From: Candidatus Woesearchaeota archaeon
GTDB taxonomy: Archaea; Nanobdellota; Nanobdellia; SCGC-AAA011-G17; PNOQ01
Length of the DNA: 64,000 nt
Reading direction: 5' to 3'
Assembly: GCA_043812195.1 (NCBI GenBank)
Contig: JBDRML010000016.1
Coordinates: 22,093 to 86,092, forward strand
Notes under the pieces: model-generated
What the model was told of the DNA's origin: nothing
The model's input: the letters and a program-made list of their open reading frames with translations, nothing else
Databases searched by the model: none
In this document: piece after piece, positions 39,594-62,249 of the stretch
Layout: each line of letters begins with the position of its first letter
Position numbering within the stretch: the stretch's first letter is position 1
Position numbers and translations under genes: made by a program

Positions 39594-39728
39594 ATTTTTA
39601 TAGTAGTTTTTATAATAGTATTATATCCTATTTTTTAGTATCATAATCCTTATATATAAAACTTTTGATTTTTGCAGAATTTTTTTAAATACTTTATTTG
39701 TTTGGTATAAAATATCAAATAAAAAAAA

Positions 39729-39741
39729 CGCCGCGACTGGG
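39729..39741. repeat. 13-bp copy of the 3' end of the tRNA gene at 40446..40560 (att-like direct repeat)
   Basis: Seen directly: CGCCGCGACTGGG at 39729..39741 equals 40446..40458. Confidence 0.55.
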
Positions 39742-39830
39742 CTTGAGGAGTTTAGGTAGAAATCCGTATTGTTATTTCTACTTTATTTTTATTACTATTA
39801 ATTTAAAGATATATAAATATTTGTTAACTT

Positions 39831-39922: not shown

Positions 39923-40072
39923 ATGGAAACTGTAACAATACCAAAGGAAGAGTATGAATGCTTAAAAGAGAAAGCAGAATTAGATGAAGATTTATTAATT
40001 TCATTAGTCAGAGGTTTAGAAGATATAAAATCCGGCAGAATAAAACCATGGAAAAGCAAAATTAAAGATTAA
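39923..40072 (+). CDS. small ORF (49 aa) with antitoxin-like C-terminus (…GLEDIKSGRIKPW), convergent with and overlapping the RelE-like gene
   Basis: Not in the supplied ORF track (<60 aa); ATG at 39923, TAA at 40070. Weak. Confidence 0.25.
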   Translation: METVTIPKEEYECLKEKAELDEDLLISLVRGLEDIKSGRIKPWKSKIKD

Positions 40073-40373
40073 GTTTTCTTTTGATTTCTTCTTTATAGGT
40101 GGGTATTAAACTTTTTATTTTATCGATTGCTTTTTGTTGATCCCTTTTAGTGCTTATAGCAATTAAAAAAACTACAACATGTTCTTCATAAATTAGATAG
40201 TATATTCTATGGTTTTTAATTTTCTTCTCTCTGAAGAATTTATAACCTAAAGATCTACCAACGTAGGGATTCATTTCTAATTGTTCAATTTCGTTATCGA
40301 TCATTATTTGAAGAGATTTATCTAATCTATCAAAATACTTATCATATTCATCTGTAGTGAATATATTGTACAT
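40062..40373 (-). CDS. RelE/ParE-family type II toxin
   Basis: 103 aa; ...KKIKNHRIYYLIYEEHVVVFLIAISTKRDQ matches the RelE/StbE family C-terminal pattern. Confidence 0.55.
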   Translation of the reverse strand: MYNIFTTDEYDKYFDRLDKSLQIMIDNEIEQLEMNPYVGRSLGYKFFREKKIKNHRIYYLIYEEHVVVFLIAISTKRDQQKAIDKIKSLIPTYKEEIKRKLNL

Positions 40374-40445
40374 ATGAAATCAGTAATGGCTTATTGTTTT
40401 TAAATTATTTGATTTCAGTGGTGGGATTTCGACCTAAACATAGGA

Positions 40446-40560
40446 CGCCGCGACTGGGATTCGAACCCAGATATCCTTTCGGAAACAGGTTTTCAAGACT
40501 TACGCTTCAAAGATATTAAATCACTTGAATCTGCGCGATACCAGATTACGCGATCGCGGC
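40446..40560 (-). tRNA. tRNA gene (~115 nt, probably intron-containing and/or with long variable arm); anticodon not confidently assigned (candidate CAA/Leu from loop UUCAAGU)
   Basis: Perfect 7-bp acceptor stem GCCGCGA/UCGCGGC, discriminator G, T-arm CUGGG-UUCGAAU-CCCAG, D-loop with GG. Too long for an intron-less type I tRNA; anticodon-stem partner strand is not contiguous. Confidence 0.65.
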
Positions 40561-41208
40561 ATAAACTTTGTAAAACCATGTTGCTTTCAGCCATATTTAA
40601 ATTTAACTGATATGAAAAATATTTGTTTTTTTGTATAACAGCTTTAACAGGTTTATTAAATCCCAATAAACTTTCAGTTATCTTGCCTATATCCAATAAT
40701 AAACCCCTACTAGCCATATGAAATAATACTCTCCCTCTTTTATTTATCACTCTATCTGTTAATAATAATCCAAGGAAAAAATATTTTTTAACTTTCCTAC
40801 ATGAATTCAATATTAAATTCGGAACCCTTACAATAGATGCTTTCTTTCCTGAAGGAATATTCAATTCATTTACTAAATAATCAAACATTGATCTTGAGTA
40901 TTTAAAAAATTCATAGATAGTCTTTCTATTTGACCTAGTTCTATTTATTATCTTTCCTTTCTCACCAAATAAATCAAAGTATAAATTATAAAATAAGTCA
41001 ACTAAAGATTAGAAGTATTATAGAACATAATTGAATAAGTAAGATAACCAGATCCATTCATTACGGTTAGAAATACTACCATCTCCGATTACCATCCCCA
41101 AAAAAAGAGCTAATTTATTAATATTTATATCTTCCACGCCATCCTATAGATTTACAGATTTATAAATTCTGAACCAACATATGATAAAATTTCGGAAAAT
41201 CTTTTTAT

Positions 41209-41892
41209 TTAAAATATTCCAACTAAATGGTAAACTAACTTAGTAGAAACAGCAATTGCATCATCATAATCAATAAATTCTAAGATAATACAGTCATTAT
41301 CTGTTAAATAAATCTGATTCTCATCCCCTTTCTCAAATAATATTATGGTTCTCCCATTACCAGAATCATCACATGTTCTTACAGGAATATCTATATCTTG
41401 TGTAAACTCATTCTCTTCAGTCAACGCACTAATAGTATTTATCTTAAAAACAGCAGGCTCAACACCAGTACTTAATATTCTCTGAGCAGTCAATATAGCA
41501 ATTGCCATTTTTCCATCTGATTCAATATCAAGATCAACATCTCTAGTAATATAAATATTCTTAGTTTTAGACTTATTAAATATTAAATCATTTATAGTAT
41601 CATCTAAAGGGATACCTTCTAACTCTTCAGGACCATATTCAAAGGGAACCTTATACTCCTTTCTAAATTGAGGTACATTATTAACTGTTCTATAATCAAT
41701 CCAAAAAGATACTATATGTATCGGTTTTCCAGTATGTTTATCTACACTTATATTATATTCAATCCCATCAGCCCCAAGATAGCTATACTCATAGGAAATT
41801 CTAGATAAAGTAGGCACAAAAATAACTATTAAAAGTAAAACAACTAAAACAATAATACCTATTGTTATATTTCTTCCCTGTTTTTTATCCAT
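41209..41892 (-). CDS. membrane-anchored extracellular protein (N-terminal TM), paralog of 41895..42395 in its C-terminal Cys-loop region
   Basis: N-terminal MDKKQGRNITIGIIVLVVLLLIVIF; C-terminal CDDSGNGRTIILFEKGDENQIYLTDNDCIILEF similar to DCDGDNFVVVLDSSADEDFYLEDNCIFING. Confidence 0.4.
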   Translation of the reverse strand: MDKKQGRNITIGIIVLVVLLLIVIFVPTLSRISYEYSYLGADGIEYNISVDKHTGKPIHIVSFWIDYRTVNNVPQFRKEYKVPFEYGPEELEGIPLDDTINDLIFNKSKTKNIYITRDVDLDIESDGKMAIAILTAQRILSTGVEPAVFKINTISALTEENEFTQDIDIPVRTCDDSGNGRTIILFEKGDENQIYLTDNDCIILEFIDYDDAIAVSTKLVYHLVGIF

Positions 41893-41894
41893 TT

Positions 41895-42395
41895 TTAAAC
41901 AATAATCCCGAATACAACGTAAGCGAGAAAGTCTATTCCTTTATTAAGATTTCCATTAATAAAAATACAATTATCTTCCAAATAAAAATCTTCATCAGCA
42001 GACGAATCTAATACAACCACAAAATTATCCCCATCACAATCAATAATAGGTAATGTGCTGTTATCATCCAAACTACCAAATTGACTAATTATACCAGCAG
42101 AAGTAAAAACATCTCTCAATCTGGCTCCCTGATACCCATTACTTTTATCAACAACATAAATCAAATTGCCTTTAATATCTATAGGACCCATATCTTCTAC
42201 TTCACTTGGCAAATATGTAAAAGTTTGATAAGAATTAGTTCTTGAAACAAAAGTGGCCCATCCTTGATCAGTTTGTTGAAATTTATATCCGTTGTATTTT
42301 TCAGAACCACCCCCACTATAAATAAATCCCAAAGTACTCATTACCATTATAAATATAATAAAAAGAGCTGCAAACAGATTTTTAGATTTTTTCAT
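41895..42395 (-). CDS. secreted/membrane-anchored small protein with C-terminal Cys-x(~20)-Cys loop
   Basis: Signal peptide MKKSKNLFAALFIIFIMVMS; downstream of the S-layer-like gene in the same orientation. Confidence 0.4.
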   Translation of the reverse strand: MKKSKNLFAALFIIFIMVMSTLGFIYSGGGSEKYNGYKFQQTDQGWATFVSRTNSYQTFTYLPSEVEDMGPIDIKGNLIYVVDKSNGYQGARLRDVFTSAGIISQFGSLDDNSTLPIIDCDGDNFVVVLDSSADEDFYLEDNCIFINGNLNKGIDFLAYVVFGIIV

Positions 42396-42477
42396 AAATA
42401 ATTAGAATTTAATCTTAATTAAAAAGGTTTCGTAAAAAATTAAAAAGAAAAAAAGAAAGAAAAAGTGTAAAATTTAT

Positions 42478-44685
42478 TTACACTATTTGTTCTGTTCCAG
42501 TTAGGCCACTAGCTGCTACACTACTTGCTGCTCTTGCAGTATCTGCTTTCTCCCATCCAGCTACAATCAATGCCATCTTATCGCCATCTTCCATTAACTT
42601 AATAACGGCTGTATCTGCTGCGATTCCAGAAGCACTTTCACAAGCTGGGTAAGTTAAGCTCATCCATTCTGCAGTTAAGCTATTAACACATGGTCCACCA
42701 ACAAGGATTAAATTGTTATAACCAGCTGCTCCAGATTCAGTTACAAGTACTGCTTCAACATTTGTTGCTGCTCCACCTTCATAAACTCCTACATTAGCTT
42801 TTACCTGATCACCAGGAATTTGTAATGTAAACAAGTCGTTGTCTCCAGAAGAATCAGTTTCATCTGCCCTGATACCATATCCAGTTAACAAGTCATATTT
42901 CTTAGCTCCAACCATTACTCTTTCTACAGCAGTTGCAGTTGCACTTGGTGCCAATGTTGCTCCCCATACAACTTCAGTACTTTCAGAGTTATCTGTAGTT
43001 CCAAATCCTAGATAGTTACCAGCTGTAGCGTTTGTAGATTGTATTCTCCACCATAAGTTATCATTCACATCAGTTGCGTTATCTGGAATAATCCCTAAAT
43101 ACCATGCGTCATCTGCACCAATATCTCCGTATGATCCAAAAACCATATCTGTAGATTTAGTATTTCTGTAGTTCACATATCCCCATGCAGTATAATTAGC
43201 ATTATTAGATATATTTCCTGCGTGTTGCACCTTGTTATCTGAGTCTGTATAGAAGATTAAAGTTCTTCCTACATCCCTATCTGCTGTAGCAGAATTATTT
43301 CCAGCAAAAGTGGTATTAGTCCATAAAAAAATCTCGTCTGTTTTTATATCAGATGTTATCTTTGCTGTACCTGCAGCCTCTATTGCACTTTGATCAAGCA
43401 CCAATCCCTCATTTTCATCAGACACTATAGAAATAACAATAGCTGCGCTTGGGAAAAGTCCTGCATTGGTAAGATCTTCTGTATTTTGACTATCTGTATA
43501 AATTTGTACCTGCATATAGTCATCATCAGCCACATTGAAGTCTTTAACTCCTATGTAAGCATATCCCTCTGGCAATCCATAATACTCTCCAGTTCCAGCA
43601 GGGTCTTTATTATAGTTATATGCTTCAAAGTCGTTTTCTATACAAACCTCATTAAAAGATCCAGATGCTCCAGATGTCAAAGCTCCTGCTTGCAATCCCT
43701 TAATATCCCAAACCCAATCAGGATTATTCTTATCACAATCAGGATCACCATGTGCGTCACTTGGAGAACAATATGTAGGATACTTATCTCCATCTTTATA
43801 AGTTACTCTAGCGTCTTCACCAATCACGAATGTTGCAACTGCTTCAGCTGCAGTACCAACACCAGCTATAGCAGAGTCCAAATAAACATCGATTTCTCCT
43901 TCAGAAACTGTAGAACCTTCACTAATTGTTCTCTGGTCATTTCCAAAATCAATAATAGCACTAGTTCCATCTACAGCAACTACTTCCATTGTTATTCCAT
44001 TACCAGAGTATACTTCTCCTGTGTGTCCAACCCAAGTATCACCAACTTGTGCAGTAAAAGATGAGTTGCTTGCAATAGCGTCAACTCTTAATGTCTTTCC
44101 TAAAAACATCATATCAAATGGATTTGAAGTACTAACTATTCCACTCACATTAATATGTTCATCAAAAGTATAACAATACTTAATTGCATCTTTTCTAATC
44201 TCTAACTTAGGATCCCATTCATACTTATCATCACTACTTGTTAGACTAGTTTCCATATCAAAGTTATTAGCAGTAGCTGTTATTTGAAGTTCATGATGGT
44301 AATCATAACTTGTTCCAGCAATACTCACTTCTGCATCATCAAAGATAGCAGAATCTGAGTCATCATAAATTGTATCCAAACCAGTACTTGTTGCAATGTT
44401 ATCTTGTAATTTAATTTCTTCTATCTGAATTAAATCCCCTAGACCTGCAGCTTCAGCTGTAGCTAAACCATCAAAATATGTTTTCAAAGTGCTTCTTGCA
44501 GCGTCATCATTTGTTCCAGCAGCGCTACCTACAACCATTGCAGTATCTACATAAGAATCACTTACAATAAATGGCGCAGGTAAATCAGCTAAAGTTTCTC
44601 CAGCTGCGAATGCGCCCCCGAAAGCAGACAATAACATTAGTCCACCAGCACCAGCTGCTGCTACTTTTTTAATTATTCGTTTCAT
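42478..44685 (-). CDS. large secreted acidic Thr/Ser/Ala/Gly/Asp-rich protein, candidate S-layer or major surface protein
   Basis: Signal peptide MKRIIKKVAAAGAGGLMLLSAFGGAFAAGE; 735 aa, no TM, low-complexity acidic composition; gene visibly more GC-rich than its surroundings. Confidence 0.5.
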   Translation of the reverse strand: MKRIIKKVAAAGAGGLMLLSAFGGAFAAGETLADLPAPFIVSDSYVDTAMVVGSAAGTNDDAARSTLKTYFDGLATAEAAGLGDLIQIEEIKLQDNIATSTGLDTIYDDSDSAIFDDAEVSIAGTSYDYHHELQITATANNFDMETSLTSSDDKYEWDPKLEIRKDAIKYCYTFDEHINVSGIVSTSNPFDMMFLGKTLRVDAIASNSSFTAQVGDTWVGHTGEVYSGNGITMEVVAVDGTSAIIDFGNDQRTISEGSTVSEGEIDVYLDSAIAGVGTAAEAVATFVIGEDARVTYKDGDKYPTYCSPSDAHGDPDCDKNNPDWVWDIKGLQAGALTSGASGSFNEVCIENDFEAYNYNKDPAGTGEYYGLPEGYAYIGVKDFNVADDDYMQVQIYTDSQNTEDLTNAGLFPSAAIVISIVSDENEGLVLDQSAIEAAGTAKITSDIKTDEIFLWTNTTFAGNNSATADRDVGRTLIFYTDSDNKVQHAGNISNNANYTAWGYVNYRNTKSTDMVFGSYGDIGADDAWYLGIIPDNATDVNDNLWWRIQSTNATAGNYLGFGTTDNSESTEVVWGATLAPSATATAVERVMVGAKKYDLLTGYGIRADETDSSGDNDLFTLQIPGDQVKANVGVYEGGAATNVEAVLVTESGAAGYNNLILVGGPCVNSLTAEWMSLTYPACESASGIAADTAVIKLMEDGDKMALIVAGWEKADTARAASSVAASGLTGTEQIV

Positions 44686-44910
44686 TTAATCTAAACACCT
44701 CCTCGTGTTCATTTTTTCATTGTATCAAGAACACTGTCACCTCTACAAATGTCATACTGTCGTCTTATTAATCTTAATTAAATCTAACGCATTTCGTCTA
44801 TTTATAAACATTTATACACTATAGTAAACAAAATAATGTCAATTCCTTATAATTTAGCAATTTCAAGCCCCAATTCCTTATAATTTCAATTATAGAAGAT
44901 ACTTCTATAA

Positions 44911-44945
44911 AAAACATCATTTCTCACAAATTACAACATAAAATA
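44911..44945 (+). repeat. copy 1 of a 33-35 bp intergenic direct-repeat family (AAACaTyaTTTyTCACAAATTACAACATAAAA)
   Basis: Seen directly; near-identical copies at 46009, 47378, 47535. Confidence 0.6.
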
Positions 44946-45016
44946 TCTTTCATCAAAAATTTGAAAAGCTTTTTATATTGATAGTAATTCCCACCCAACA
45001 ATAGAAAAACTTATAA

Positions 45017-45029
45017 ATGTAGTCACCCA
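45017..45029 (+). repeat. 13-bp direct repeat ATGTAGTCACCCA bracketing the Fic gene (left copy)
   Basis: Seen directly; identical copy at 45993..46005, immediately after the Fic stop codon. Confidence 0.55.
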
Positions 45030-45039
45030 TATATTAAAT

Positions 45040-45990
45040 ATGAATTTAGAAGTAAGAAATGTTGGGAAAAAGAAAAAGTATTATTTAGCTCACTCATTCA
45101 GAGAAGGAAAAAAAGTAAAGAAAATAAGAAGATATTTAGGCTCAAATCTAAATAAAATTCAACTAGAAAAACTAAAAGAAAGATCAGAAGAAATCATAAA
45201 GCAACAAATAGAAAACTATAAGATCATAGCAGATCCATTAAAACACGAATTAACAGAAAAAGAATTAGAATTCCTAAAAAATTTAGAAACAAAAGGAAAA
45301 ATAGAAATAAAACATCTTTCCAAAGAGCAATGGACTAAATTCACAGAGCTTTTTACATATAACACAAATGCCATTGAAGGCTCTGAAGTAAATCAAAAAG
45401 AAGTTAAAGAAATTTTAGAAGAAAACAAATGGCCAAAAGAAGTAGATAGGGAAGATATTTCAGAAACATACGGGGTAGCAGAAGCAATTGAATTCATAAG
45501 AAAAACAAAAGAACATATATCCCTTTCCTTGATTAAAAAAATACACCAAATAATTTTCAAAAATTCCAAATCATTTGCAGGGAAATTTAGAACCAAAGGT
45601 ATTGAAGTAGCTATTAGGGATAAATTAGGAAATATAGCCCATATAGGGGCTCCTGCCAATAGAATTAGAGGATTATTAGAAGAACTAATAGATTGGCATA
45701 ATAAAAATAAGAATAAATATCCCCCAATACTATTAGCCGCTGTTGTTCATAATCAATTTGAAAATATCCACCCTTTTCAAGATGGCAATGGGAGAGTGGG
45801 AAGGCTATTGTTAAATAATATTTTATTAAAAAATAACCTGCCTCCAGTAAATATAAGTCTTGGAAATAGAAGAGAATATTATTCAACTCTACAATCTTAT
45901 CAAAAAAAAGGAGACATAAAACCCACAATTAAATTGATTTTAAAAGAATATAAAGAATTAAAGAAAGAATTAGGTGTCTACAAAAATTAA
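45040..45990 (+). CDS. Fic/Doc family protein (AMPylation/phosphocholination-type)
   Basis: Canonical Fic motif HPFQDGNGRVGRLL. Confidence 0.85.
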   Translation: MNLEVRNVGKKKKYYLAHSFREGKKVKKIRRYLGSNLNKIQLEKLKERSEEIIKQQIENYKIIADPLKHELTEKELEFLKNLETKGKIEIKHLSKEQWTKFTELFTYNTNAIEGSEVNQKEVKEILEENKWPKEVDREDISETYGVAEAIEFIRKTKEHISLSLIKKIHQIIFKNSKSFAGKFRTKGIEVAIRDKLGNIAHIGAPANRIRGLLEELIDWHNKNKNKYPPILLAAVVHNQFENIHPFQDGNGRVGRLLLNNILLKNNLPPVNISLGNRREYYSTLQSYQKKGDIKPTIKLILKEYKELKKELGVYKN

Positions 45991-45992
45991 TG

Positions 45993-46005
45993 ATGTAGTC
46001 ACCCA
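45993..46005 (+). repeat. 13-bp direct repeat ATGTAGTCACCCA (right copy)
   Basis: Seen directly. Confidence 0.55.
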
Positions 46006-46008
46006 ACA

Positions 46009-46043
46009 TCAAAACATTATTTTTTACAAATTACAACATAAAA
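46009..46043 (+). repeat. copy 2 of the 33-35 bp repeat family
   Basis: caaaacattattttttacaaattacaacataaaac. Confidence 0.6.
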
Positions 46044-46052
46044 CTCAAATGC

Positions 46053-47330
46053 CTATAACAACCATTTCCACAAAGAAATATATTTTATCTTTTTACCATT
46101 AATTCTCTCTTCACCATCCTTATCATTGGTTATAATAACTAAATTATTGCATTTAAGCTCTATACTCGCTTTCAATAATGATTTAATCTCTCTGCTTTTC
46201 GTATTTTCACTTTCAATATCATAGCATACCTGAATTAGTTCTTTAATCTTTAATCCTTCCTTAACAACAAAATCAACTTCATTTTGTTGATGGTCCTTCC
46301 AATAATAAACTTCAGTATTAATTTTATCGTTTTTGAACTTTCTTCTTAATAATTCTATAACGACTATATTTTCGAATAATTTACCATTATCTTTCGACAA
46401 CCTAAAACTAACAAAATTGCAGAATCCATGATCAACAGAATAAACCTTTTTAGGAGCAATTATTTGCTGTTTCAATTTATTTGAATATCTTTCCAAAACT
46501 ATTATCAAAAAAGCTTCCTTTAAATAATTAACATAGTTTTTAATCGTATGAGGATCTTTTATATTAAATATTTTAGAAAGTTTTGAATATGTAAATTCAC
46601 TAGAAAAATTGCTTATGAGATAGCTAGAAAGTTCTCTAAAAGTGCCTTTTTTTTCAATAGCATATCTTCTCAAACAATCTTTGTTTATTATATCCTCGTA
46701 AATTCTCACAACCATATTTGAGCCAAACTTTGCAAATTCAGGAAATCCGCTGCCATGAAGATACTTATTAAACTCCCGCCTTATTTTGGCGCGATCTTCA
46801 GTTGCATAAATATTAGGCTTAAAGCTTAATGTTTCTTTAAATGAAAACGGATATAAAACAAAATCTATGTATCTGCCAGTTAAATGAGTAGCTAACTCAC
46901 CGGATAATAATTTAGAATTACTGCCGGTTATAATAACTTTCTTGCTTCTTCTAAGCCTTGTCGCAAATAATTCCCAGCCAGTTACATTTTGAATTTCATC
47001 CAAAACTACAAGGTCTATATCACCATACATTTCATAAAATGCTTCCAATATTTTATTCAAATCAGATGTCTTGACATTAATCAGCCTTTCATCGTCAAAG
47101 TTTATATAAGCAAAATTTTGTTTTAATTCTTTTGATAAAATCAGAGAAAAAATAGACTTTCCGCTTCTTCTAACACCAAGTATAGCAAGTATATTAGGAT
47201 ACTTAAGATATTTTTTCTCGTAGTCTATGAGCTCTCTTTCTACTATTTTCTCTTCACTAAATTTCTTTTCCAGCTCTCTCCTTTGGTCTTCTATTATCCT
47301 TTTTAGTATCTCTAATTGCATAGGAATCAA
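46053..47330 (-). CDS. AAA+ superfamily ATPase with DUF4143-like C-terminus (COG1373-type predicted archaeal ATPase)
   Basis: P-loop GVRRSGKS; Walker B LVVLDEIQ; 425 aa. Confidence 0.7.
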   Translation of the reverse strand: MIPMQLEILKRIIEDQRRELEKKFSEEKIVERELIDYEKKYLKYPNILAILGVRRSGKSIFSLILSKELKQNFAYINFDDERLINVKTSDLNKILEAFYEMYGDIDLVVLDEIQNVTGWELFATRLRRSKKVIITGSNSKLLSGELATHLTGRYIDFVLYPFSFKETLSFKPNIYATEDRAKIRREFNKYLHGSGFPEFAKFGSNMVVRIYEDIINKDCLRRYAIEKKGTFRELSSYLISNFSSEFTYSKLSKIFNIKDPHTIKNYVNYLKEAFLIIVLERYSNKLKQQIIAPKKVYSVDHGFCNFVSFRLSKDNGKLFENIVVIELLRRKFKNDKINTEVYYWKDHQQNEVDFVVKEGLKIKELIQVCYDIESENTKSREIKSLLKASIELKCNNLVIITNDKDGEERINGKKIKYISLWKWLL

Positions 47331-47377
47331 AACACAAACATCTTTATAAAGTTTGCGGTTACGAACTACATACTTTT

Positions 47378-47470
47378 AAACCTTTATTTTTCACAAATTA
47401 CAACATAAAATTCAAATTCCCAAGATCTCCTAAAAGATTCAGAATTAATGCCTAAAAAACAATCTCCAAC
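47378..47470 (+). repeat. copy 3 of the 33-bp repeat plus ~60 bp duplicate of the 3' end of the pilin-like gene 47541..47951 (93-bp segment ~90% identical to 47535..47628)
   Basis: Seen directly: ...cacaaattacaacataaaattcaaattcccaagatctcctaaaagattcagaattaatgcctaaaaaacaatctccaact versus 47535 onward. Confidence 0.6.
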
Positions 47471-47534
47471 TACGCTCAAACTATGCCATTATTCACAAAA
47501 AGTTTAGTATTCTTAAATAAAAAGTGAATAATAG

Positions 47535-47569
47535 AAACATTTATTTTTCACAAATTACAACATAAAATT
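47535..47569 (+). repeat. copy 4 of the 33-bp repeat, overlapping the true 3' end of pilin-like gene 47541..47951
   Basis: aaacatttatttttcacaaattacaacataaaatt. Confidence 0.6.
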
Positions 47570-47951
47570 CAAACTCTCCAGACCTTCTAAAAGATTCAGA
47601 ATTAATGCCTAAAAAACAATCTCCAACTCTAATTTCTTCACCACTACTGCATTCCATTACAAATCCAGAATCCTCATCAACAAAATTCATATTCCCAGAT
47701 ACAAAATTTCTCAATGTATTACAATCAACTTCTTCACCCAAACAACAACTAGTTGCTAAATCTCCAAAATTAGTTCCGCTAACATCAGCTTTAGCCAAAG
47801 CATTAGCAAAATTATACGCTTTATTATTCAAATAAACATTCCTATCATCTCCTCCACTCCTAGAAAACAATAAAGCAAACAACCCAATAAACACAACTAA
47901 CAAAACAATAATAACCAATCCAAATGTTTCTATTTGTCCTTTTTTAAACAT
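47541..47951 (-). CDS. class III signal peptide (archaeal type IV pilin-like) protein
   Basis: N-terminus MFKKGQIETFGLVIIVLLVVFIGLFALLF: basic residues, G-Q processing motif, hydrophobic helix. Confidence 0.5.
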   Translation of the reverse strand: MFKKGQIETFGLVIIVLLVVFIGLFALLFSRSGGDDRNVYLNNKAYNFANALAKADVSGTNFGDLATSCCLGEEVDCNTLRNFVSGNMNFVDEDSGFVMECSSGEEIRVGDCFLGINSESFRRSGEFEFYVVICEK

Positions 47952-48396
47952 ACCTCTCTACCTCCAGAACACCAACATAATACTTCTCATCCCATGCATT
48001 ATACACACTAACAGGACTAGTTATTTTTCTTATTCCAGTATAACTTGATAATTTATTATCATACAAAACTAAAGTATCAGCAGAAACTTTCAATGTAATT
48101 TTCTTATAACCGAACAAATTCTTATAATATTCATTATCACTCACATCAGCAAAAGCTCTTGCCTTATAAAAATCAATACTTCCTTTTTGATCTCCTCTAA
48201 CAGAATAACTCAATTCAGGCATACTAGGAACAAAACTAATCATATCTTCAAATTTATCTTCTTGATACTTCTCATTTAGATTCTCAATAGATCTAATTTG
48301 AAATTGATAAAACAAAACAAAACCAATCAATAAAATAACCACAACTATAAATATAACAAATCCTGTTTCCTGTATTTGTAATTGTCCTTTTTTCAT
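47944..48396 (-). CDS. class III signal peptide (pilin-like) protein
   Basis: MKKGQLQIQETGFVIFIVVVILLIGFVLFY. Confidence 0.5.
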   Translation of the reverse strand: MKKGQLQIQETGFVIFIVVVILLIGFVLFYQFQIRSIENLNEKYQEDKFEDMISFVPSMPELSYSVRGDQKGSIDFYKARAFADVSDNEYYKNLFGYKKITLKVSADTLVLYDNKLSSYTGIRKITSPVSVYNAWDEKYYVGVLEVERYV

Positions 48397-49217
48397 TAAT
48401 AAATTACCTCACAACCATGATTATCCAAAGCCTCATTCAAACTAATAATTGAATTAATATTATCATCTCTTAAAGCACCTATAATTTGTCCATATTCAGC
48501 ACATTTACTTCCAAAATATTGTGCCTTCTTGATATAAAGTTCTTTCAAACTATTCTTCCTTTCTTCTAAATAATTCTTACTACATTCAAAAACATCCGGA
48601 CTTGAAAACATCGCACCATAAACAAAAACATTATCTCCATTATAATTAAAATATTTATCTTCATTAACATACCAAATCTGATTTCCATTAAAAGCTATAA
48701 CTTTTTTATTAGGATTAGGTTCAGCACCTCCAAAATAAACCAAAACATCAGCATTCCCTTCACTAGTTATTTTCAATTCATTAGGTATCTCATCCATAAA
48801 TTCTTCATTAACACCAGAAAAATAAAATTTCAAATCAGAATTCCATAAATAAACCACAGTATCAATCAAATAAGGTTTTTCATAATTCTGACTCCACATA
48901 CTAAAAGGACCTTCGCTTTTATCTTCAACAAAGATTACACTACTAGATTCAATAGACTGATCTTCATTAATATACATCCTCTCACAATTATATTCTAAAA
49001 CAAAATCTGAAAAATCTTCTCCAAAAACTTTATACTGAGAAATTCCTTTAGCACCCAAAATAGAACTATCCAAAGCCCTTACAATCTTACCATTTTCTTT
49101 ACTCTGCTCTAAATCAATATATCTTACACTAAAGAATGCAAAAAATATTAAAAACAACGCACCAGCAATAATAACAAAAATCCAATTAAACTGAATGCCC
49201 TGACCTCTTTTTTCCAT
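48396..49217 (-). CDS. class III signal peptide (pilin-like) protein, larger (273 aa), possible minor pilin or adhesin
   Basis: MEKRGQGIQFNWIFVIIAGALFLIFFAF. Confidence 0.45.
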   Translation of the reverse strand: MEKRGQGIQFNWIFVIIAGALFLIFFAFFSVRYIDLEQSKENGKIVRALDSSILGAKGISQYKVFGEDFSDFVLEYNCERMYINEDQSIESSSVIFVEDKSEGPFSMWSQNYEKPYLIDTVVYLWNSDLKFYFSGVNEEFMDEIPNELKITSEGNADVLVYFGGAEPNPNKKVIAFNGNQIWYVNEDKYFNYNGDNVFVYGAMFSSPDVFECSKNYLEERKNSLKELYIKKAQYFGSKCAEYGQIIGALRDDNINSIISLNEALDNHGCEVIY

Positions 49218-49322
49218 AACCTAAATTCAGAATTATTATTTAAATAGATTGTGTTAAGGTAAAAACCCAAAGGTTTATATATATTAACGTATTTATGTTT
49301 TTTAACGTAAGGAGGTTTAAAA

Positions 49323-49565
49323 ATGGTGAGCATCACATTATCTGTCCCAGAAGAAATTAAAAAAAGCATGGAAACATTTTCAGAAATAAACTGGTCTGGA
49401 TTTGTCAGAAAATCCATCATAGAAAAAACACAAGAACTAACAAAAAAAGAAGAGTTATTAAAAGAATTAGAAAAAGAAAAAGATATAATAGATTGGTCTG
49501 TAAAACTTCAAAGAGTATCAAGGAAAGGAAGATTCCAAGATTTAAAAAAGAAGGGATTAATATGA
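49323..49565 (+). CDS. ribbon-helix-helix (CopG-like) antitoxin
   Basis: MVSITLSVPEEIKKSMETFSE... beta-strand/helix pattern of RHH antitoxins; stop overlaps the PIN gene start (ATGA). Confidence 0.45.
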   Translation: MVSITLSVPEEIKKSMETFSEINWSGFVRKSIIEKTQELTKKEELLKELEKEKDIIDWSVKLQRVSRKGRFQDLKKKGLI

Positions 49566-49990
49566 AATTGGTAACTGATACAAACATATTATTCACTTTT
49601 TTCTGGAAAAACTCCTATACAAGAAAATTATTCATAAATCAAGATTTAGAATTAATATCTCCAGAATTCGCTTTAGAAGAAATAAAAAAATATTCCGAAG
49701 AAATAATTAGAAGAGCAAAAATATCAAAAAAAGAATTTCAGGATATCAGAAAAGAACTCGCTCTTATGGTTGAATTTATACCTTTAAAAGAATATTCAGA
49801 ATATTTAAAAAAAGCATCAGAAATTTCTTATGATAAAGATGATGTTGATTTTATTGCTTTAGCTTTAAAACTAAAATCCCCCATATGGTCTAATGATAAA
49901 GAATTTAAGAAACAAAATAAAATTAAAGTTTACTCTACTCTAGAAGTTTTAAAAGAATTAAACTATGGATCAATTAATAATGAAAAGTAA
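49562..49990 (+). CDS. PIN-domain toxin (VapC-like)
   Basis: Start moved to in-frame ATG at 49562: MKLVTDTNILF ... DFIALALKLKSPIWSNDKEF (PIN acidic residues). Confidence 0.55.
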   Translation: MKLVTDTNILFTFFWKNSYTRKLFINQDLELISPEFALEEIKKYSEEIIRRAKISKKEFQDIRKELALMVEFIPLKEYSEYLKKASEISYDKDDVDFIALALKLKSPIWSNDKEFKKQNKIKVYSTLEVLKELNYGSINNEK

Positions 49991-50121
49991 AAAAATGCCA
50001 GAAAATCCTTTAAAAGATTGTTTAGGAATTCTAAAAAAAGATAAAGAATGGGAAGAATTAGAAAAAAATCTAAAAATAGATTGGAAAAATTTTAACGAAA
50101 AATTAAAAAGGACTTAAAGGA

Positions 50122-50613
50122 TTAAATATGTTCCGCTAATACTAATTCTCCTTTATTAGTAAATCTAATGTCAATTTTATTATCAATTAAGTTATCACAT
50201 AATGGATTCAAACCTTCAATATAAATTCTTTCGAATTCTTTAGATCTTAATTTCTCATCAGCAAAAAACACATTTTCATCTTGAAAACCAGAATAAGACA
50301 AATTAATAAATTCTCTCAAATTAAAATTATTAACCAAACTTAAATCAATTTCACTATTTCTATCAATAATACAAATTTCAGAAATACTATTTGGAATATT
50401 AATATTTTCTAAAGACATTATACTTCCAAAACTATCATGATAAACCTTACTTTCAACTTCCTCTATATCACTAACAAATCTTTGATACTCAACTTCCTGT
50501 CCAGTATTTATAACATTAATAATAGCTTTCACTCCAAAAAATAAAATAATAGCAGCAACTATCAAAAGAAAAATATACACAAAAGGTTGCCCCATTAATT
50601 GTCCTTTTCTCAT
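50122..50613 (-). CDS. class III signal peptide (pilin-like) protein
   Basis: MRKGQLMGQPFVYIFLLIVAAIILFFGV; start overlaps the end of the giant gene. Confidence 0.5.
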   Translation of the reverse strand: MRKGQLMGQPFVYIFLLIVAAIILFFGVKAIINVINTGQEVEYQRFVSDIEEVESKVYHDSFGSIMSLENINIPNSISEICIIDRNSEIDLSLVNNFNLREFINLSYSGFQDENVFFADEKLRSKEFERIYIEGLNPLCDNLIDNKIDIRFTNKGELVLAEHI

Positions 50614-53600
50614 CTTGGATAAACTGTAAATGGATTAGTATTCTTATTGTCCCATTTATCTAAACACTTAATATAATAAACATCTTCACCTAAAGAAGCA
50701 TAGTGTTCTTTCTCGTTTCTAGCAGAAATCATAGTAAAGACTGTATCTTCATTTTCATCCTGCACATCAAAGTTATCTTTCTCACTACTATATTTACATA
50801 CACTTTCTTCATTCATCAAAACATGTAATTGCTGACTTGTTGTCCAAACTCTTAATAAAATAGGAGCATCTAAGTCCTTGAATATAACTATAGTTCTTTC
50901 TTCCTGCACCACATTACCAGCAAAATCAGTACACTCATATAAAACAGGATAATGCAGACCTTCAGGAGTTCCTTCAATATCTTCATGTAAAGTCTTATGT
51001 GTTCTTGAAAACAAAGTAGTTACATTATACCAATTATCTCCTATCTGATATTTACATATAGCATCATTTCCTGTTTCAATCTCAATTTCAAATTTATCAT
51101 CATATGTTTCAAATGTTGCATTAGGCTCAATAATATCCATTTCAAATGTTGGCCAAATCATTGCAGTCCATAAGTAAGGATCTTCCATAACATTAGATTC
51201 CTCCCCAATATCAGGTACATCTCCACATTTAATCCATAATGGACAGAAAGTACTATTAAATGGTTTTGTAATTCCATTACCTTCAGGTATATTAATTTCT
51301 TCACACCAGCCAGCTTCTCCTAAATTAAACTCAGTTTGGAATTTCTGGCAAGTTTCATCAGTCTGACTACATGGAGTATTTCCTTTACCACCAAAGCTTG
51401 TCATATCTCCATAATTCAAAGTATCATTATCCTTAGAATATTTACAATCTTGAACATTATTCTTATCATAAGCATACAATATAAATGGAATATTTGTAGT
51501 TCCTTCAGGTACATTAATATTCACAGGATTAATATAATCAATAATTGGAGGCAATTCATCAGGAGCCTCTTTAAAACTAAAACTCACATAATCTTTATCT
51601 TCTTTATTAGTATTTCCAGCTATATCTTGGCATTTAATATAAATATAAGTTTTGTCTCTAACTTTATCTTCAGCTCTAAATGTAATATTCACTCCATGAT
51701 CAGCAGATGCACCCCATGGGAATGAAGTCATATCATCATATTCAGTACTTCTAGCAAAACTATATTTACAATGTCCTATTTCACTAGTATTTATTTTTAG
51801 AAGAGTATAAGAAGTTTCCCATTCAATTTTATCACTAATTTCTAATTTTCTTCCTTCACCCTTAAATTCTTGTATTGTTAAATTATCTTCACCCTTAAAT
51901 TCAATCTCTATAGATTCTAAATAAGGGGAACTATGATCATCAGGCTCAGAAGGCAAACACAATCCTCCAACAACCCCATTTTCTTCAAAAGGAACATAAC
52001 TACACCAATCACTCTCAGCTCCTAAAATCTTACATCTCTTTTCAGTGCAATCCCATTGTCCTTCTAATCCACACTCAGCACAATGAATATTATCAGTATA
52101 TGGTTTCTCCGGAATACATTCTCCTGTTTTAAATGAGGTTGTTACAGTATAAATTGAAGCTATATATGATGCTATAATCAAAATCTTACTAACAGCCTGA
52201 GAAGAAATTTTACCAAATAAACCACCACTAGAAACTTCACCACCTTCAAGAGTATAAGCAACCCCTTCAACACTTTGTGTCACTTGTAAATTAAATTTTA
52301 CTAATGGAGAAATCATATTAGGAGCAATCTTAGAAAATACAATAGTTAAAACATTAGCAGCAGCAGAATAATAGAATGAATTAGGAAATTTTCTATCAGA
52401 ATCAATACCACTAGCCTCAAATATTTCATTTTTTTCTTCTTCGCTCAAAATCTTATCTAAATGGTTAGCCCAAGATAAGATATAAGATAATCTCAATTTA
52501 TCATTATAATATAAATCTCCAGCATCTTTCGGAGTATCGTGTGTACCTGTAGCAGCAGTATAACCATAAACAATAGATAAAACACCCCAATATATTACCG
52601 CACCAAGCGACATAAATCCACCAACAACACCAGACGCACATGCAGCCCACCCTGGGAACCCAACACCAGGAAGTGCAGCAACAACACCACAAACTGCAAT
52701 CATAGATCCCATTGTACCTACAGCAATTGCTCCAGTAGTTGCAAGCCCTGCTGTTGAAAAACCATCAGCTTCGAACTGGCAATCTCCTAAAGCATTACAC
52801 TCAAAATCAGTACAAACATTTACAGAACCATCGCCACCTTTTCCACACTGGCTACATCTATTTCCTGAATCACCATATCCTTCAGCTCCTTCACCAGGAG
52901 GATACAAAGCATTACAACTTCCAATTGGTGCCCAAACATCCCTATCATAACCTTCCTCTTGCATTAAAGGTCCACCACCACAATTACCAAAATCAGAACA
53001 TTTATCTTGATTATTAAACCACCCATTATCATCAGTACATTGTTTGCCAACAACATTAGCTAAAAATTGTCCAACACCTGGCGCATAATTAAAAAAATCA
53101 ATCACAGAACGCCCATCTCCACAATCCTTATGACATTTTTCCCAGGCATTATCAACCAAATCAGCCTCTACCCTTGTTAAATTTCCAATCTTAGTTACAG
53201 ATTCTTCACATCTCATTCCCCTATTTTTATCATCATAATCAGGTTCTATTTCTCTATTCTGGCATGTTAACACATAATTATGCAATCCAGTACTTTTTCT
53301 ATCATTCAAAAAATGTCCAGAAAGAACATTCATACAAATAGACTCTCCACTTTTAAAAGTATTTGGCCATGTATTAGGAGAATCTTCAACACAATCAGTA
53401 CTTAAACAAACCGCATCTTCACCACCAACCACATTATCAGGGTCATCACACATTCCACCAGGCCTGCATTCATCAAATATTTCTTCTCTATTTCCATCAG
53501 AATCATAATAATAAACATCCCACTTATCATCATCAGTAGTTCCATCGCCGCAGCTTTTAAACTTATGACCTTCTCTATAACTAGGACACCCAACAACTTC

Positions 53601-54221
53601 AGAACATAAAGTACTTTCAAAGAAATTAGCCCTTTCAAATCCAGGAGCATCTTTAAATCTATCTAAAGGACCATATTCACAAACTCCACCACCCGCACTC
53701 TTATAACATCCAGTTACAGAACCAGAACATTCTAAATTACAATCTTGTCTATTTGTAATTCCACCAATAAATTGTTCGCCACCTAAATCAGTTCTACAAA
53801 CTTTTTCTTCTTGAACACTACAAGAACCAAATTGTATGCAACATCCAGATTGACAAGCACTAACAGATTCCTTAGAAGCACCTAAATGAAAAGTGCCGCC
53901 ATCTGTTTTACATCTAACTTCTTCAACATTATCTAAACAACCACCAACATCAGAAGGGACACATGCACCTTTTTGACACTCATTTATTTCTCCTTTAGTC
54001 TGAAAATTCCATTCATGCCCTCCTGCACATCCACCATAAGCATCCCAACCTTGTCCATTAGAAACTTCAACACAATAATCTCCATTATTAGTTAAACCGC
54101 AAGTATCAACATTAGCAGCTGAAACTTCTTCAGTATTTAAAACCAAAGCAAAATTAATAACAGCTACAATCATTATAACTGAGAAAAATACAGCAATTGA
54201 TTTTCTAATAGCATATTTCAT
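50610..54221 (-). CDS. giant (1203 aa) cysteine-rich secreted/polytopic surface protein of unknown function
   Basis: Signal peptide MKYAIRKSIAVFFSVIMIVAVINFALVLNTEEVSAA; ~480-aa Cys-rich ectodomain; central Gly/Ala-rich hydrophobic block (~aa 490-690, 2-4 TM helices); ~500-aa C-terminal domain with further Cys pairs. Confidence 0.6.
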   Translation of the reverse strand: MKYAIRKSIAVFFSVIMIVAVINFALVLNTEEVSAANVDTCGLTNNGDYCVEVSNGQGWDAYGGCAGGHEWNFQTKGEINECQKGACVPSDVGGCLDNVEEVRCKTDGGTFHLGASKESVSACQSGCCIQFGSCSVQEEKVCRTDLGGEQFIGGITNRQDCNLECSGSVTGCYKSAGGGVCEYGPLDRFKDAPGFERANFFESTLCSEVVGCPSYREGHKFKSCGDGTTDDDKWDVYYYDSDGNREEIFDECRPGGMCDDPDNVVGGEDAVCLSTDCVEDSPNTWPNTFKSGESICMNVLSGHFLNDRKSTGLHNYVLTCQNREIEPDYDDKNRGMRCEESVTKIGNLTRVEADLVDNAWEKCHKDCGDGRSVIDFFNYAPGVGQFLANVVGKQCTDDNGWFNNQDKCSDFGNCGGGPLMQEEGYDRDVWAPIGSCNALYPPGEGAEGYGDSGNRCSQCGKGGDGSVNVCTDFECNALGDCQFEADGFSTAGLATTGAIAVGTMGSMIAVCGVVAALPGVGFPGWAACASGVVGGFMSLGAVIYWGVLSIVYGYTAATGTHDTPKDAGDLYYNDKLRLSYILSWANHLDKILSEEEKNEIFEASGIDSDRKFPNSFYYSAAANVLTIVFSKIAPNMISPLVKFNLQVTQSVEGVAYTLEGGEVSSGGLFGKISSQAVSKILIIASYIASIYTVTTSFKTGECIPEKPYTDNIHCAECGLEGQWDCTEKRCKILGAESDWCSYVPFEENGVVGGLCLPSEPDDHSSPYLESIEIEFKGEDNLTIQEFKGEGRKLEISDKIEWETSYTLLKINTSEIGHCKYSFARSTEYDDMTSFPWGASADHGVNITFRAEDKVRDKTYIYIKCQDIAGNTNKEDKDYVSFSFKEAPDELPPIIDYINPVNINVPEGTTNIPFILYAYDKNNVQDCKYSKDNDTLNYGDMTSFGGKGNTPCSQTDETCQKFQTEFNLGEAGWCEEINIPEGNGITKPFNSTFCPLWIKCGDVPDIGEESNVMEDPYLWTAMIWPTFEMDIIEPNATFETYDDKFEIEIETGNDAICKYQIGDNWYNVTTLFSRTHKTLHEDIEGTPEGLHYPVLYECTDFAGNVVQEERTIVIFKDLDAPILLRVWTTSQQLHVLMNEESVCKYSSEKDNFDVQDENEDTVFTMISARNEKEHYASLGEDVYYIKCLDKWDNKNTNPFTVYPR

Positions 54222-57078: not shown

Positions 57079-57663
57079 TTATATCAACTCCGAAAACGCA
57101 ATTTTTAACCAGCCAAGATAAGGCACCTTAAAAACGGCCCTCCCAACAACTCTATCTTCTGTAATATCTAATTCATTTAATCCTTGGCCACTATCCACAT
57201 TATTATCTCCTTTTGTCTGGAAATGATACTCTCCATCTACATCCCAAACCTTTACAACCCTATGTATGATTGGATTGTCTAAATTTGATTGAAATACTAG
57301 TATATCCCCTATATTTATATTTTGTGGAGATTCACCAACTAGTATCATAATATCTCCTTTATTAAATCCATTCTTAAATTCAAAGTTTTCAAAGTCTTCT
57401 ATTTTTATATTATTACTCTCGTACCATTCTTTATTATCTTCCCACCAAGCAAAAAAATCATTATTATCATGCTCCATACTCCCAGAAACAACAGCCACAA
57501 TAGGAAACCCAGTTCCCAATAGTAAACCTAATCCAGGATATATTAAAAATTTAACAATTATAAATGCTAATACAAAAGATACTAACCAACTCCAAACTGA
57601 ATCACTTTTCCATAAAAAATTCCAAGTCTTTTTTAAAGTACTAACCATAAGAATATATGACAA
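57079..57663 (-). CDS. signal peptidase I, archaeal/eukaryotic Sec11-type
   Basis: N-terminal TM; VAVVSGSMEH catalytic Ser box. Confidence 0.75.
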   Translation of the reverse strand: MSYILMVSTLKKTWNFLWKSDSVWSWLVSFVLAFIIVKFLIYPGLGLLLGTGFPIVAVVSGSMEHDNNDFFAWWEDNKEWYESNNIKIEDFENFEFKNGFNKGDIMILVGESPQNINIGDILVFQSNLDNPIIHRVVKVWDVDGEYHFQTKGDNNVDSGQGLNELDITEDRVVGRAVFKVPYLGWLKIAFSELI

Positions 57664-61667: not shown

Positions 61668-62249
61668 ATGAGAGAATTCATATATTTTTCAAGAGATGCA
61701 AGAACTTCTGGTAATTTTCAAGATTTAATGAAAGCAGGTAGAATGGATATAGCCTGCCACACAATAATAGCAGCCTTTTTCCTATCTCATAATTTAAGAG
61801 AAGACGTAAAATTGCATTTAATTTTTTACGGTCCTCCAGATCCACCAAAACATTTAGAAATTATAAGCTCAGAAAGGTTGCACGAATTCTTAAGTAAAAA
61901 AGACGTAGCAGGACTAATAAAAAGAATGTTATTCAAATATAAAAAAGGAAAGAAAACAGAACCATTTCCATCCTGTTTCATAGAAAAAAAGCCATTATTA
62001 AATTTAATAGAAGAATTAAAAAAAGAAGGTAAAGAAATATACATTCTAGACAAAAAAGGAAATTCATTAAGAAACCAAAAACTATCAAATAAATCTGTAT
62101 TTTTATTAGGAGATCACAAAGGAATACCACAAAAAGAAAAAAAGAGAATATCAAAAATCGCAGAAAAAGTTTCAATAGGTCCACAAATGTATTTTGCTAG
62201 TCACACCTTAACTATTCTACAAAATGAATTAGATATAAGAAATCTTTAA
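61668..62249 (+). CDS. trmY: tRNA (pseudouridine54-N1)-methyltransferase TrmY (Mja_1640/DUF358 SPOUT family)
   Basis: MREFIYFSRDARTSGNF...FFLSH...FLLGDHKGIPQKE closely resembles methanogen TrmY. Confidence 0.8.
   Translation: MREFIYFSRDARTSGNFQDLMKAGRMDIACHTIIAAFFLSHNLREDVKLHLIFYGPPDPPKHLEIISSERLHEFLSKKDVAGLIKRMLFKYKKGKKTEPFPSCFIEKKPLLNLIEELKKEGKEIYILDKKGNSLRNQKLSNKSVFLLGDHKGIPQKEKKRISKIAEKVSIGPQMYFASHTLTILQNELDIRNL

Follow-up and report, generated by a model that had tools for sequence, protein, structure and literature searches.

Three stranded 3' ends of a pilin-like gene around Fic and AAA_14-DUF4143 ATPase genes of a woesearchaeote, probable scars of serial recombinational import

Integrative elements that enter at the 3' ends of tRNA or protein genes leave attL/attR duplications there and can accrete in tandem. 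Integrase-less modules that depend on Xer, such as the pdif modules and the integrative mobile elements exploiting Xer recombination (IMEX), share a universal 28-bp dif-like site, and integron cassette arrays have reportedly been found in Archaea. A further process, C-terminal (sequential) displacement in rhs and type VI secretion system (T6SS) loci, has been ascribed to homology-facilitated illegitimate recombination (Kirchberger 2017, PMC5361080). Displacement arrays (rhs orphan tips, CdiA-CT/CdiI orphans, and Vibrio T6SS effector-immunity arrays; PMC5361080, and Jackson 2009 cited therein) are the closest described analogue of the locus considered here. This locus lies in a 64-kb stretch (hereafter the window; 29% G+C) of a metagenome-assembled genome (MAG) of Candidatus Woesearchaeota, where four copies of a 33-mer surround a Fic-domain gene and the gene of an ATPase with AAA_14 and DUF4143 domains (COG1373), between a pilin-like gene and an S-layer-like gene (Table 1). 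As in the displacement arrays, the full-length gene has orphan 3' fragments behind it in the same orientation, every one still accompanied by the gene that it formerly preceded; the likeness extends to a proposed join through one homologous anchor and an illegitimate event, made without an integrase, and to orphans that can recombine with the live gene. Unlike those arrays, the tails here are short (8-50 codons) and are conserved structural C-termini, not variable toxin domains; the passengers are autonomous defence-type genes, in either orientation and with their own promoters, not cognate immunity genes; and the host genes encode archaeal surface proteins. The repeated bracketing of one-gene defence-type modules by stranded tails appears to be undescribed in DPANN archaea.

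The preliminary description of this DNA had placed four same-orientation copies of the 33-mer in intergenic spacers. The count and the orientation are borne out: the core, TTYTYACAAATTACAACATAAAA, occurs on the plus strand at 44921, 46021, 47388 and 47545 (0 copies expected in shuffles) and nowhere else in the window, and a repeat search returns a 43-nt family at 44911, 46011, 47378 and 47535 together with a 94-nt pair (47378-47471 and 47535-47628; 94% identity). Copies 1 to 3 are indeed intergenic; copy 4 is not, being the 3' end of the live gene at 47541-47951. Read on the minus strand, all four copies give (FE)FYVVIC(E/K)K followed in frame by a stop, and they differ from one another by GAG/GAA, TGA/TAA, and one E to K change. 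The 33-mer is coding sequence, namely the last codons and stop of the pilin-like gene, rather than the terminator or 3' untranslated region (UTR) that had been offered as an alternative, and since all copies are in-frame coding sequence with a stop, the "repeat family" is one live gene end plus three stranded ends. Copies 1 and 2 span just 8-11 codons. Copy 3, recognized from the start as a stranded pilin-gene tail, retains 31 codons; it once ended a live gene and is at present a pseudogene fragment. A scan of genome contigs for the 33-mer (a species-representative set without the source genome) gave two unrelated single matches, one in a Limnocylindrales MAG contig and one in Lachnospira; a metagenome scan gave single matches with Lachnospira-type flanks plus one true relative, L005 (loci fetched for comparison carry L numbers), and no tail copies beyond the locus. 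A structured RNA or terminator was also considered and was rejected: the folding energies of the four copies are 0 to -0.4 kcal/mol (z > 0 for each), and none matches an Rfam family.

The gene that owns this tail has an N-terminus, MFKKGQIETFGLVIIVLLVVF, that fits a class III signal peptide (K/R-G, then a hydrophobic helix). It has no Pfam or NCBIfam match, and the label pilin-like is a putative one drawn from the N-terminus alone. The three genes upstream of it also carry class-III-signal-like N-termini. Its own family has 5 homologues in 5.8 billion proteins, and the C-terminus GDCFLG..SE.F..E..V.ICEK is common to all.

Relatives preserve the site in simpler states. In L018, a 76-kb contig whose pilin-like protein is 57% identical, the operon is syntenic and the S-layer gene follows 250 nt after the pilin-like gene; L018, L020 and L021 all lack Fic and ATPase, and each has one tail with the S-layer gene directly next to it. 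The ~200 nt downstream of copy 1 align with the pilin-to-S-layer intergenic region of these three loci, and the TGA stop and T-run of copy 1 resemble the native gene end of L018, which argues that copy 1 is the ancestral pilin-like gene end, still joined to the ancestral intergenic region. By synteny, the S-layer-like gene is the ancestral downstream neighbour. In L019 (pilin-like protein 74% identical), the ATPase promoter begins 9 nt after the live tail. The best match of the L019 ATPase is the window ATPase (82% amino acid identity), and the L019 junction of live tail and ATPase is the homologue of the junction that copy 3 makes with the ATPase in the window. Copy 3 therefore served at one time as the live end, before copy 4 and a 63-nt spacer were added. 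As in displacement arrays, then, co-oriented orphans lie with their former downstream DNA, copy 1 at the S-layer promoter and copy 3 at the ATPase. These alignments support the earlier proposal that the Fic and ATPase genes are insertions at repeat-defined positions. No extra pilin-like paralogue is present at the site in the relatives examined. Assemblies made independently (JGI, ENA and Logan; L005/L023, L022, L024, L025) show the same pilin-like/Fic/ATPase architecture, which is therefore no assembly artefact. The 63-nt spacer is 100% identical in L005, L022, L023 and L025; its hairpin is weak (z = -1.9).

Stranded tails recur at other loci of this ATPase family. L026 (L027 is the same sequence) has two tandem ATPase genes, 42% identical to each other, with three C-terminal tails of a convergent gene (...ADAVRIENI.PPWQN...FSI, then stop) between and around them, and only the outermost copy is attached to its gene. 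L034 has three tandem, mutually diverged ATPase genes; tails that end in ...VVFNVSGAGRYNIQ and a stop bracket the first two, and the third gene runs off the end of the locus. L030 has one ATPase gene and two stranded tails (...VVVIGISW(L/F)IKRRL, then stop); their homology to the tail of a neighbouring 203-aa gene was considered and is not convincing. In all ATPase units examined, cassette boundaries lie within ~10 nt of the flanking repeats. Among 79 control open reading frames (ORFs) from the window, L018 and L028, Fic and ATPase alone have flanking repeats that score at least 18 (next best 15), and the tail pattern is seen in 4/6 independent ATPase contexts vs 0/77 controls (P = 8e-6).

The sequences of these tails show how they have evolved. 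Tails B and C of L026 differ at 5/21.5 synonymous vs 1/77.5 nonsynonymous sites and tails t2 and t3 of L034 at 10/17.5 vs 5/63.5, giving a combined 15/39 vs 6/141 (P = 2e-7); the stranded tails of L026 are 95% identical to each other and 75% identical, with an indel, to the live tail. Because the divergence is mostly synonymous, the tails evolved within live genes of different lineages and were then brought together, so that here, too, the orphans were once live, as in displacement arrays. Divergence under purifying selection also argues against in-situ target-site duplication and fits either displacement or the integration of a circle with a foreign tail.

In the window itself, strain comparisons indicate that the copies continue to exchange sequence. 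Window and L005 are 99.5% identical over 44686-48000, and copies 3 and 4, 188 nt in all, hold 15/32 mismatches against an expected ~1 (P = 4e-13). The live tails of the two differ by 7 synonymous changes and 1 nonsynonymous change, and this mainly synonymous pattern identifies a patch from a diverged functional allele; copy 3 of L005 carries an in-frame stop. All four window copies have GTA where copies 1, 3 and 4 of L005 have GTG. This shared GTA to GTG change is concerted evolution, and the copies still recombine by gene conversion. Elsewhere, identity between strains is 75-85% in the S-layer gene body and the two genes after it (41200-44500) and in a toxin-antitoxin region at 49200-50150; in the same strains (L005/L022) it is 99.6% over 44500-48800 and 97.6% over 40001-40499. 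Recent transfer of the island between strains, a candidate explanation of 99.6% identity flanked by 75-85%, was dropped, since segments farther away are again ~98% identical; the S-layer and toxin-antitoxin regions are therefore the hypervariable ones, and the surface-protein genes appear, from these alignments, to be swapped or fast-evolving islands in near-identical genomes.

Taken together, these findings favour, with some reserve, a history in which DNA was imported by recombination several times in succession at the extreme 3' end of the pilin-like gene; the three intergenic 33-mers would be the scars, earlier ends of the gene that were left stranded. The identity of the repeats, the empty sites of relatives, the recurrence at other loci, the selection signature and the concerted change are observed directly, whereas the sequence of events and its enzymology, given next, are inferred. 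Each import would have consisted of a new gene tail and the donor DNA lying downstream of that tail, with self-contained single-gene defence-type modules with conserved promoters as the cargo. The first would have introduced the convergent Fic gene along with copy 2; the second, the gene of the predicted ATPase-nuclease and its own promoter along with copy 3; and the last, the 63-nt remnant along with copy 4, the present live tail. With every import the earlier live tail and the DNA downstream of it would be moved farther from the gene, so that the oldest tail, copy 1, would be the one abutting the ancestral S-layer promoter. The join might be made by a circular molecule of tail plus cargo that integrates Campbell-style via the short tail homology, or by one homologous anchor in the gene and an illegitimate join within the resident tail, i.e., C-terminal displacement. 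The repeats would end at the stop codon because homology between donor and recipient ends with the conserved gene, as would suit integration of the Campbell type.

Several points weigh against serial import. Two ATPase contexts (L028 and L039-47) have no tail repeats, and within the window the tail-to-tail comparisons hold too few sites for a clear selection signal. The 63-nt spacer matches nothing else in the window or the fetched loci that could be its source, and the expected donor state, a pilin tail followed by a convergent Fic gene, was not found in the relatives examined. The ATPase stop codon is followed by copy 2 at a distance of 0 nt, a neater junction than an illegitimate join would be expected to leave. 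Neither circular intermediates nor single-cassette alleles were observed, and a trans-acting recombinase may be encoded beyond the 64-kb window.

A short motif also recurs at the repeats. In three unrelated loci, TGTTGTRAT lies at, or at most 11 nt from, the gene-proximal (left) repeat edge; for tails B and C of L026 it coincides with that edge. It is present, as TGTTGT(A/G)AT, at 44926-44934, 46026-46034, 47393-47401 and 47550-47558 of the window (minus strand), at 4892-4900 of L026, and at 4443 and 5986 of L030; the GTA/GTG strain polymorphism sits within it. In 69 kb of loci, 10/12 occurrences are inside repeats; the motif was found post hoc and encodes Val-Val-Ile.

The most far-reaching alternative, which we consider unlikely, extends to DPANN single-gene defence-type modules as a class (AAA_14-DUF4143/PDC-S01, Fic, and small toxin-antitoxin pairs). 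Such modules would be integrase-less mobile cassettes that enter where surface-protein or tRNA genes end, at the last codons, and that each carry or create a copy of the target 3' end; their arrays would be functionally analogous to integrons. TGTTGTRAT might direct the entry, with the ATPase-nuclease or an enzyme of the host as catalyst, and the 13-mer that flanks the Fic gene (see below) would then be a second module-borne site for recombination or regulation.

A conventional site-specific cassette system, integron-like or IMEX/pdif-like, would have its recombinase elsewhere and a core in the tail (perhaps TGTTGTRAT), and would move circles of cargo plus site. The repeats are co-oriented at every cassette boundary, two to three cassettes are stacked per target in L026 and L034, the motif is placed near the left repeat edge as described above, and an identical base change is found in three copies of one strain. 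Nevertheless we judge such a system quite unlikely. In Pfam scans no integrase, recombinase, transposase or reverse transcriptase domain was found in 54 scanned window ORFs, 52 of them at least 190 aa. (These 52 comprise all ORFs of that length apart from 57079-57663, 61668-62249, 63380-63991, the 1203-aa ORF at 50610-54221, and three taken as spurious because they overlap longer opposite-strand genes.) The inserted 2.6 kb codes solely for Fic and ATPase, with no element-encoded integrase. The 33-mer has no secondary structure, the repeats are different gene tails at each locus and range from 27 to ~150 nt, the orientation of cargo with respect to tail varies among loci, and TGTTGTRAT, a post hoc motif encoding a common tripeptide, lies on the opposite strand relative to the ATPase in L026.

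Integron arrays share with this locus the small single-gene cassettes, each repeat-bounded, with newer ones displacing older; here, however, there is no detectable IntI, no attC hairpin and no common promoter, and the repeat is host coding sequence. The cassettes are also neither promoterless nor co-oriented, as Fic (plus strand) and ATPase (minus strand) have own promoters that are conserved in other genomes, and the earlier description of the locus as integron-like does not hold in the strict sense. The pdif modules and IMEX resemble the present units in being small, in lacking a recombinase of their own, in being bounded by short sites, and in accumulating at one locus, but the flanking repeat here changes from locus to locus. 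With attL/attR elements the locus shares direct repeats that duplicate the target 3' end, an intact target, empty sites in relatives, and several stacked units, and the window holds a tRNA 3'-end duplication around a ParE module as well. It differs in that its units are 1.0-1.4 kb with one gene and no integrase, and in that its repeats vary in length, end at the stop codon, and diverged under purifying selection.

Alternatively, the ATPase-nuclease might itself be mobile, making widely staggered cuts near gene ends whose fill-in would generate long, variable target-site duplications. The minimal cassette, a ~55-nt conserved promoter plus ORF with boundaries within ~10 nt of the repeats, would suit such an element, as would the predicted PD-(D/E)XK-type domain, the flanking repeats in 4/6 independent contexts, and the thousands of near-relatives across phyla, many on contigs barely above gene length. 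However, Fic is bracketed by the same tails without a nuclease; the tails differ mainly at synonymous sites and, in L026, by an indel, and so were not made in situ; no terminal inverted repeats are seen; and the fold search shows AAA+ relatives only, with no transposase-like fold. This makes a mobile ATPase distinctly improbable.

The preliminary description had suggested that the Fic and ATPase genes interrupted a longer array of pilin-like genes, so that the copies would be remnants of tandem paralogues whose bodies were deleted or replaced. The 31 pilin-like tail codons of copy 3 and the three class-III-signal-like genes directly upstream in the operon are compatible with this, but relatives have exactly one family gene at the site and then the S-layer gene, the family is small, the C-termini of the neighbouring pilin-like genes are unrelated, copies 1 and 2 are only 8-11 codons long, and stranded tails occur elsewhere with non-pilin genes. 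A longer array is thus very improbable. The 33-mer might also be a selected cis element (terminator or 3' UTR), for which there is a T6 run after the stop of copy 1 and another on the plus strand of copy 2, downstream of Fic, but against which stand the lack of a fold or Rfam match and the lack of extra copies in genomes without insertions. Copy 3 might instead be a silent, pilS-like cassette that varies the pilin C-terminus. Sequence does pass between copies 3 and 4, and no other 188 nt of the locus vary as much, but conversion altered one residue only of the live protein (E/K), copy 3 has a premature stop in L005, and L019 has no silent copy. Both readings are very improbable. A diversity-generating retroelement, with copy 3 as template and copy 4 as variable repeat, was also rejected: there is no reverse transcriptase domain, and the differences are mixed transitions and transversions, not adenine-specific.

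Table 1. Features of the window around the stranded pilin-like gene ends
Feature	Coordinates	Strand	Basis or remarks
S-layer-like gene	42478-44685	-	Pfam S_layer_C
Conserved S-layer promoter region	44686-44910	-	Synteny with L018, L020, L021
Copy 1, stranded tail	44911-44943	-	(I)FYVVICEK, stop; TGA stop, then T-run (T6)
Fic promoter region	44987-45029	+	Degenerate distal motif 44987-44999; TATA 45011-45018; proximal 13-mer 45017-45029
Fic-domain gene, 316 aa	45040-45990	+	Pfam Fic, E = 8e-23
Fic 3' inverted repeat	45973-46005	+	GGTGTCTACA (encodes ..GVY..) + 10 nt + TGTAGTCACC; right arm is the downstream 13-mer
Copy 2, stranded tail	46011-46052	-	AFEFYVVICKK, stop; frame as ATPase, directly after ATPase stop
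ATPase AAA_14 + DUF4143 (COG1373)	46053-47321	-	Pfam
Putative ATPase promoter, palindromic and operator-like	47332-47372	-	Conserved; consensus TAACCACAAACTT-TATAAA-AAGTTTGTGGTTA around TATA box
Copy 3, stranded 94-nt tail	47378-47471	-	..VVGDCFLGINSESFRRSWEFEFYVVICEK, stop / ...SWEFEFYVVICEK, stop; 94% identical to copy 4
Spacer, 63 nt, unique	47472-47534	-	Between copy 4 and copy 3; 8-10-bp inverted repeat inside
Copy 4, live tail	47535-47628	-	...SGEFEFYVVICEK, stop; last 94 nt including 6 nt beyond stop
Live pilin-like gene, 136 aa	47541-47951	-	ORF; N-terminus MFKKGQ + hydrophobic stretch
PIN protein	49493-49990	+	Pfam

The Fic protein contains, from its sequence, the active-site motif HPFQDGNGRVGR (canonical HxFx(D/E)GNGRxxR) and a TNAIEG inhibitory-helix-like motif. 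It matches the PADLOC models SoFic (E = 4e-37) and PDC-S04; its score with the NCBIfam SoFic model, 50.6, is far below the equivalog cut-off of 550, and by this measure it is a SoFic-like family member, not an equivalog. The gene is exactly bracketed, as first described, by two copies of a 13-mer, ATGTAGTCACCCA, at 45017-45029 and 45993-46005 (0 exact copies expected by chance), which lie 10 nt before its ATG (45040) and 2 nt after its stop (45990). The idea that these 13-mers delimit a cassette did not survive comparison with the Fic homologues of L048 and L058 (70-79% identical), which lie in unrelated contexts: in L048 the neighbours are tRNA-Val and tRNA_edit genes, and in L058 Fic is flanked by a HEPN/NTase pair and by MazE. 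The ~55 nt upstream of Fic are conserved in the window, L048 and L058. Both homologues have ATGTAG(A/T)CACC(C/T)A between the TATA box and the ATG, a degenerate copy ~30 nt upstream, and a 3' copy at or just past the stop (two mismatches in L058), which forms an inverted repeat with coding TTAGGTG(T/A)CTACA. Across 174 fetched loci, the motif ATGTAGWCACCYA is found beside this Fic family only and always on the Fic strand. Because it is kept around Fic in unrelated contexts, the motif is part of the Fic module rather than a duplicated target. The 13-mer is a cis element, most likely an operator sited between TATA box and start, and the position of the 3' copy suggests a hairpin (-5.6 kcal/mol, z = -2.3) or a second site. 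The spacing of the promoter would imply a leaderless transcript. In L048, which represents another woesearchaeote population (>20 assemblies), the Fic module (2447-3467) starts 10 nt after the 3' end of tRNA-Val (2362-2436) and ends 4 nt from the stop of the convergent tRNA_edit gene; no duplicated tRNA end was detected at this module.

The ATPase matches the PADLOC defence candidate PDC-S01 (E = 1e-105); PDC-S01 is a candidate only, and a defence role for either protein is putative. Its C-terminal domain is predicted to be of the PD-(D/E)XK type. DUF4143 has been listed among PD-(D/E)XK superfamily families of unknown function (PMC3424549), and nothing beyond this listing was found in the DUF4143/COG1373 literature. 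An AlphaFold2 (AF2) model (pLDDT 82) has AAA+ ATPases as its best PDB folds (SSO1545, RuvB, ORC); the fold search, which returned AAA+ relatives only, is uninformative on the C-terminal domain, and a sequence search found no homologue of solved structure. There are >7000 homologues. Those listed, strain copies aside, are 62-76% identical and come from Woesearchaeota, Nanoarchaeota, Altiarchaeota, Hadarchaeota, Methanofastidiosia, and one Elusimicrobia MAG, and many are on 1.4-2 kb contigs. A large share of the close homologues of both ATPase and Fic are on contigs just 100-400 nt longer than the gene (1.1-1.7 kb), and L025 ends exactly within copy 3, which suggests that assemblies routinely break at the repeats or strain-variable junctions flanking these genes. 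Viral contigs, searched with the ATPase, alignments of both proteins, and the operator, yielded no close relatives; the nearest were one 44%-identical ATPase and Fic matches of at most 36% identity.

A palindrome/TATA promoter of ~50-55 nt lies directly upstream of the ATPase ATG in the window, L019, L026, L028, L030, L034 and L039, and has a putative operator/promoter function. The element precedes AAA_14-DUF4143 genes from different phyla. It is at 1380-1466 in L019 (as a tandem duplication), 4945-5000 in L026, 4950-5000 and 7041-7070 in L028, and 4625-4676 in L030; in L028, a solitary copy without a gene lies 770 nt downstream of the ATPase.

Other parts of the window bear on the same neighbourhood. 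Upstream of the S-layer gene, an exact 16-nt direct repeat, CAATTCCTTATAATTT, is present at 44840-44855 and 44871-44886 (spacing 31 nt); since its core, AAGGAATT, also occurs twice in the matching region of L018, L020 and L021, the repeat probably has a conserved regulatory role in the S-layer promoter. On the other side of the locus, a ribbon-helix-helix (RHH) and PIN gene pair (49323-49990) is also inserted relative to L018. The RHH gene (49323-49565) and the PIN gene (49493-49990) occupy a position where the flanking pilin-like genes are 51 nt apart in L018, and strain relatives hold a different RHH/PIN/VapB set in the 49323-50117 region. A 50-aa ORF that follows PIN (49965-50117) is similar to the C-terminal end of a second RHH protein, a likeness that makes it a possible further displaced fragment.

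The window also contains a duplicated gene end around a toxin gene. A GC-rich 17-mer, ACGCCGCGACTGGG(C/A)TT, is found at 39728-39744 and 40445-40461, 717 nt apart, and one copy is the 3' acceptor/T-arm end of an apparent intron-containing tRNA (~40445-40560, minus strand), which ARAGORN missed and which has a weak Rfam tRNA match (E = 0.53). A 131-aa ORF (40493-40888, minus strand) that overlaps this tRNA-like gene is probably not a real gene. Between the 17-mers lie a ParE toxin gene (40062-40373, minus strand) and a small antitoxin-like ORF (39925-40072, plus strand), making a ~700-bp toxin-antitoxin module that is flanked by a duplicated gene 3' end and has no integrase.

How accessory and defence genes are taken up and shuffled in the tiny, integrase-poor genomes of DPANN archaea is poorly understood. 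The window, the three other ATPase loci, and the ParE/tRNA module suggest a recurrent route, in which modules, each a single gene with its own promoter, accumulate at the very end of a host gene that stays intact, without an element-encoded integrase. The recurrence of stranded tails merits a systematic survey, for which the tails, the TGTTGTRAT edge motif, the Fic 13-mer, and the putative palindromic operator of the ATPase provide concrete, testable sites. If general, this route would explain the wide but patchy spread of AAA_14-DUF4143 and Fic genes across archaeal phyla, why these genes are so often on contigs barely above gene length, and the formation of mini defence islands beside fast-evolving surface-protein genes.

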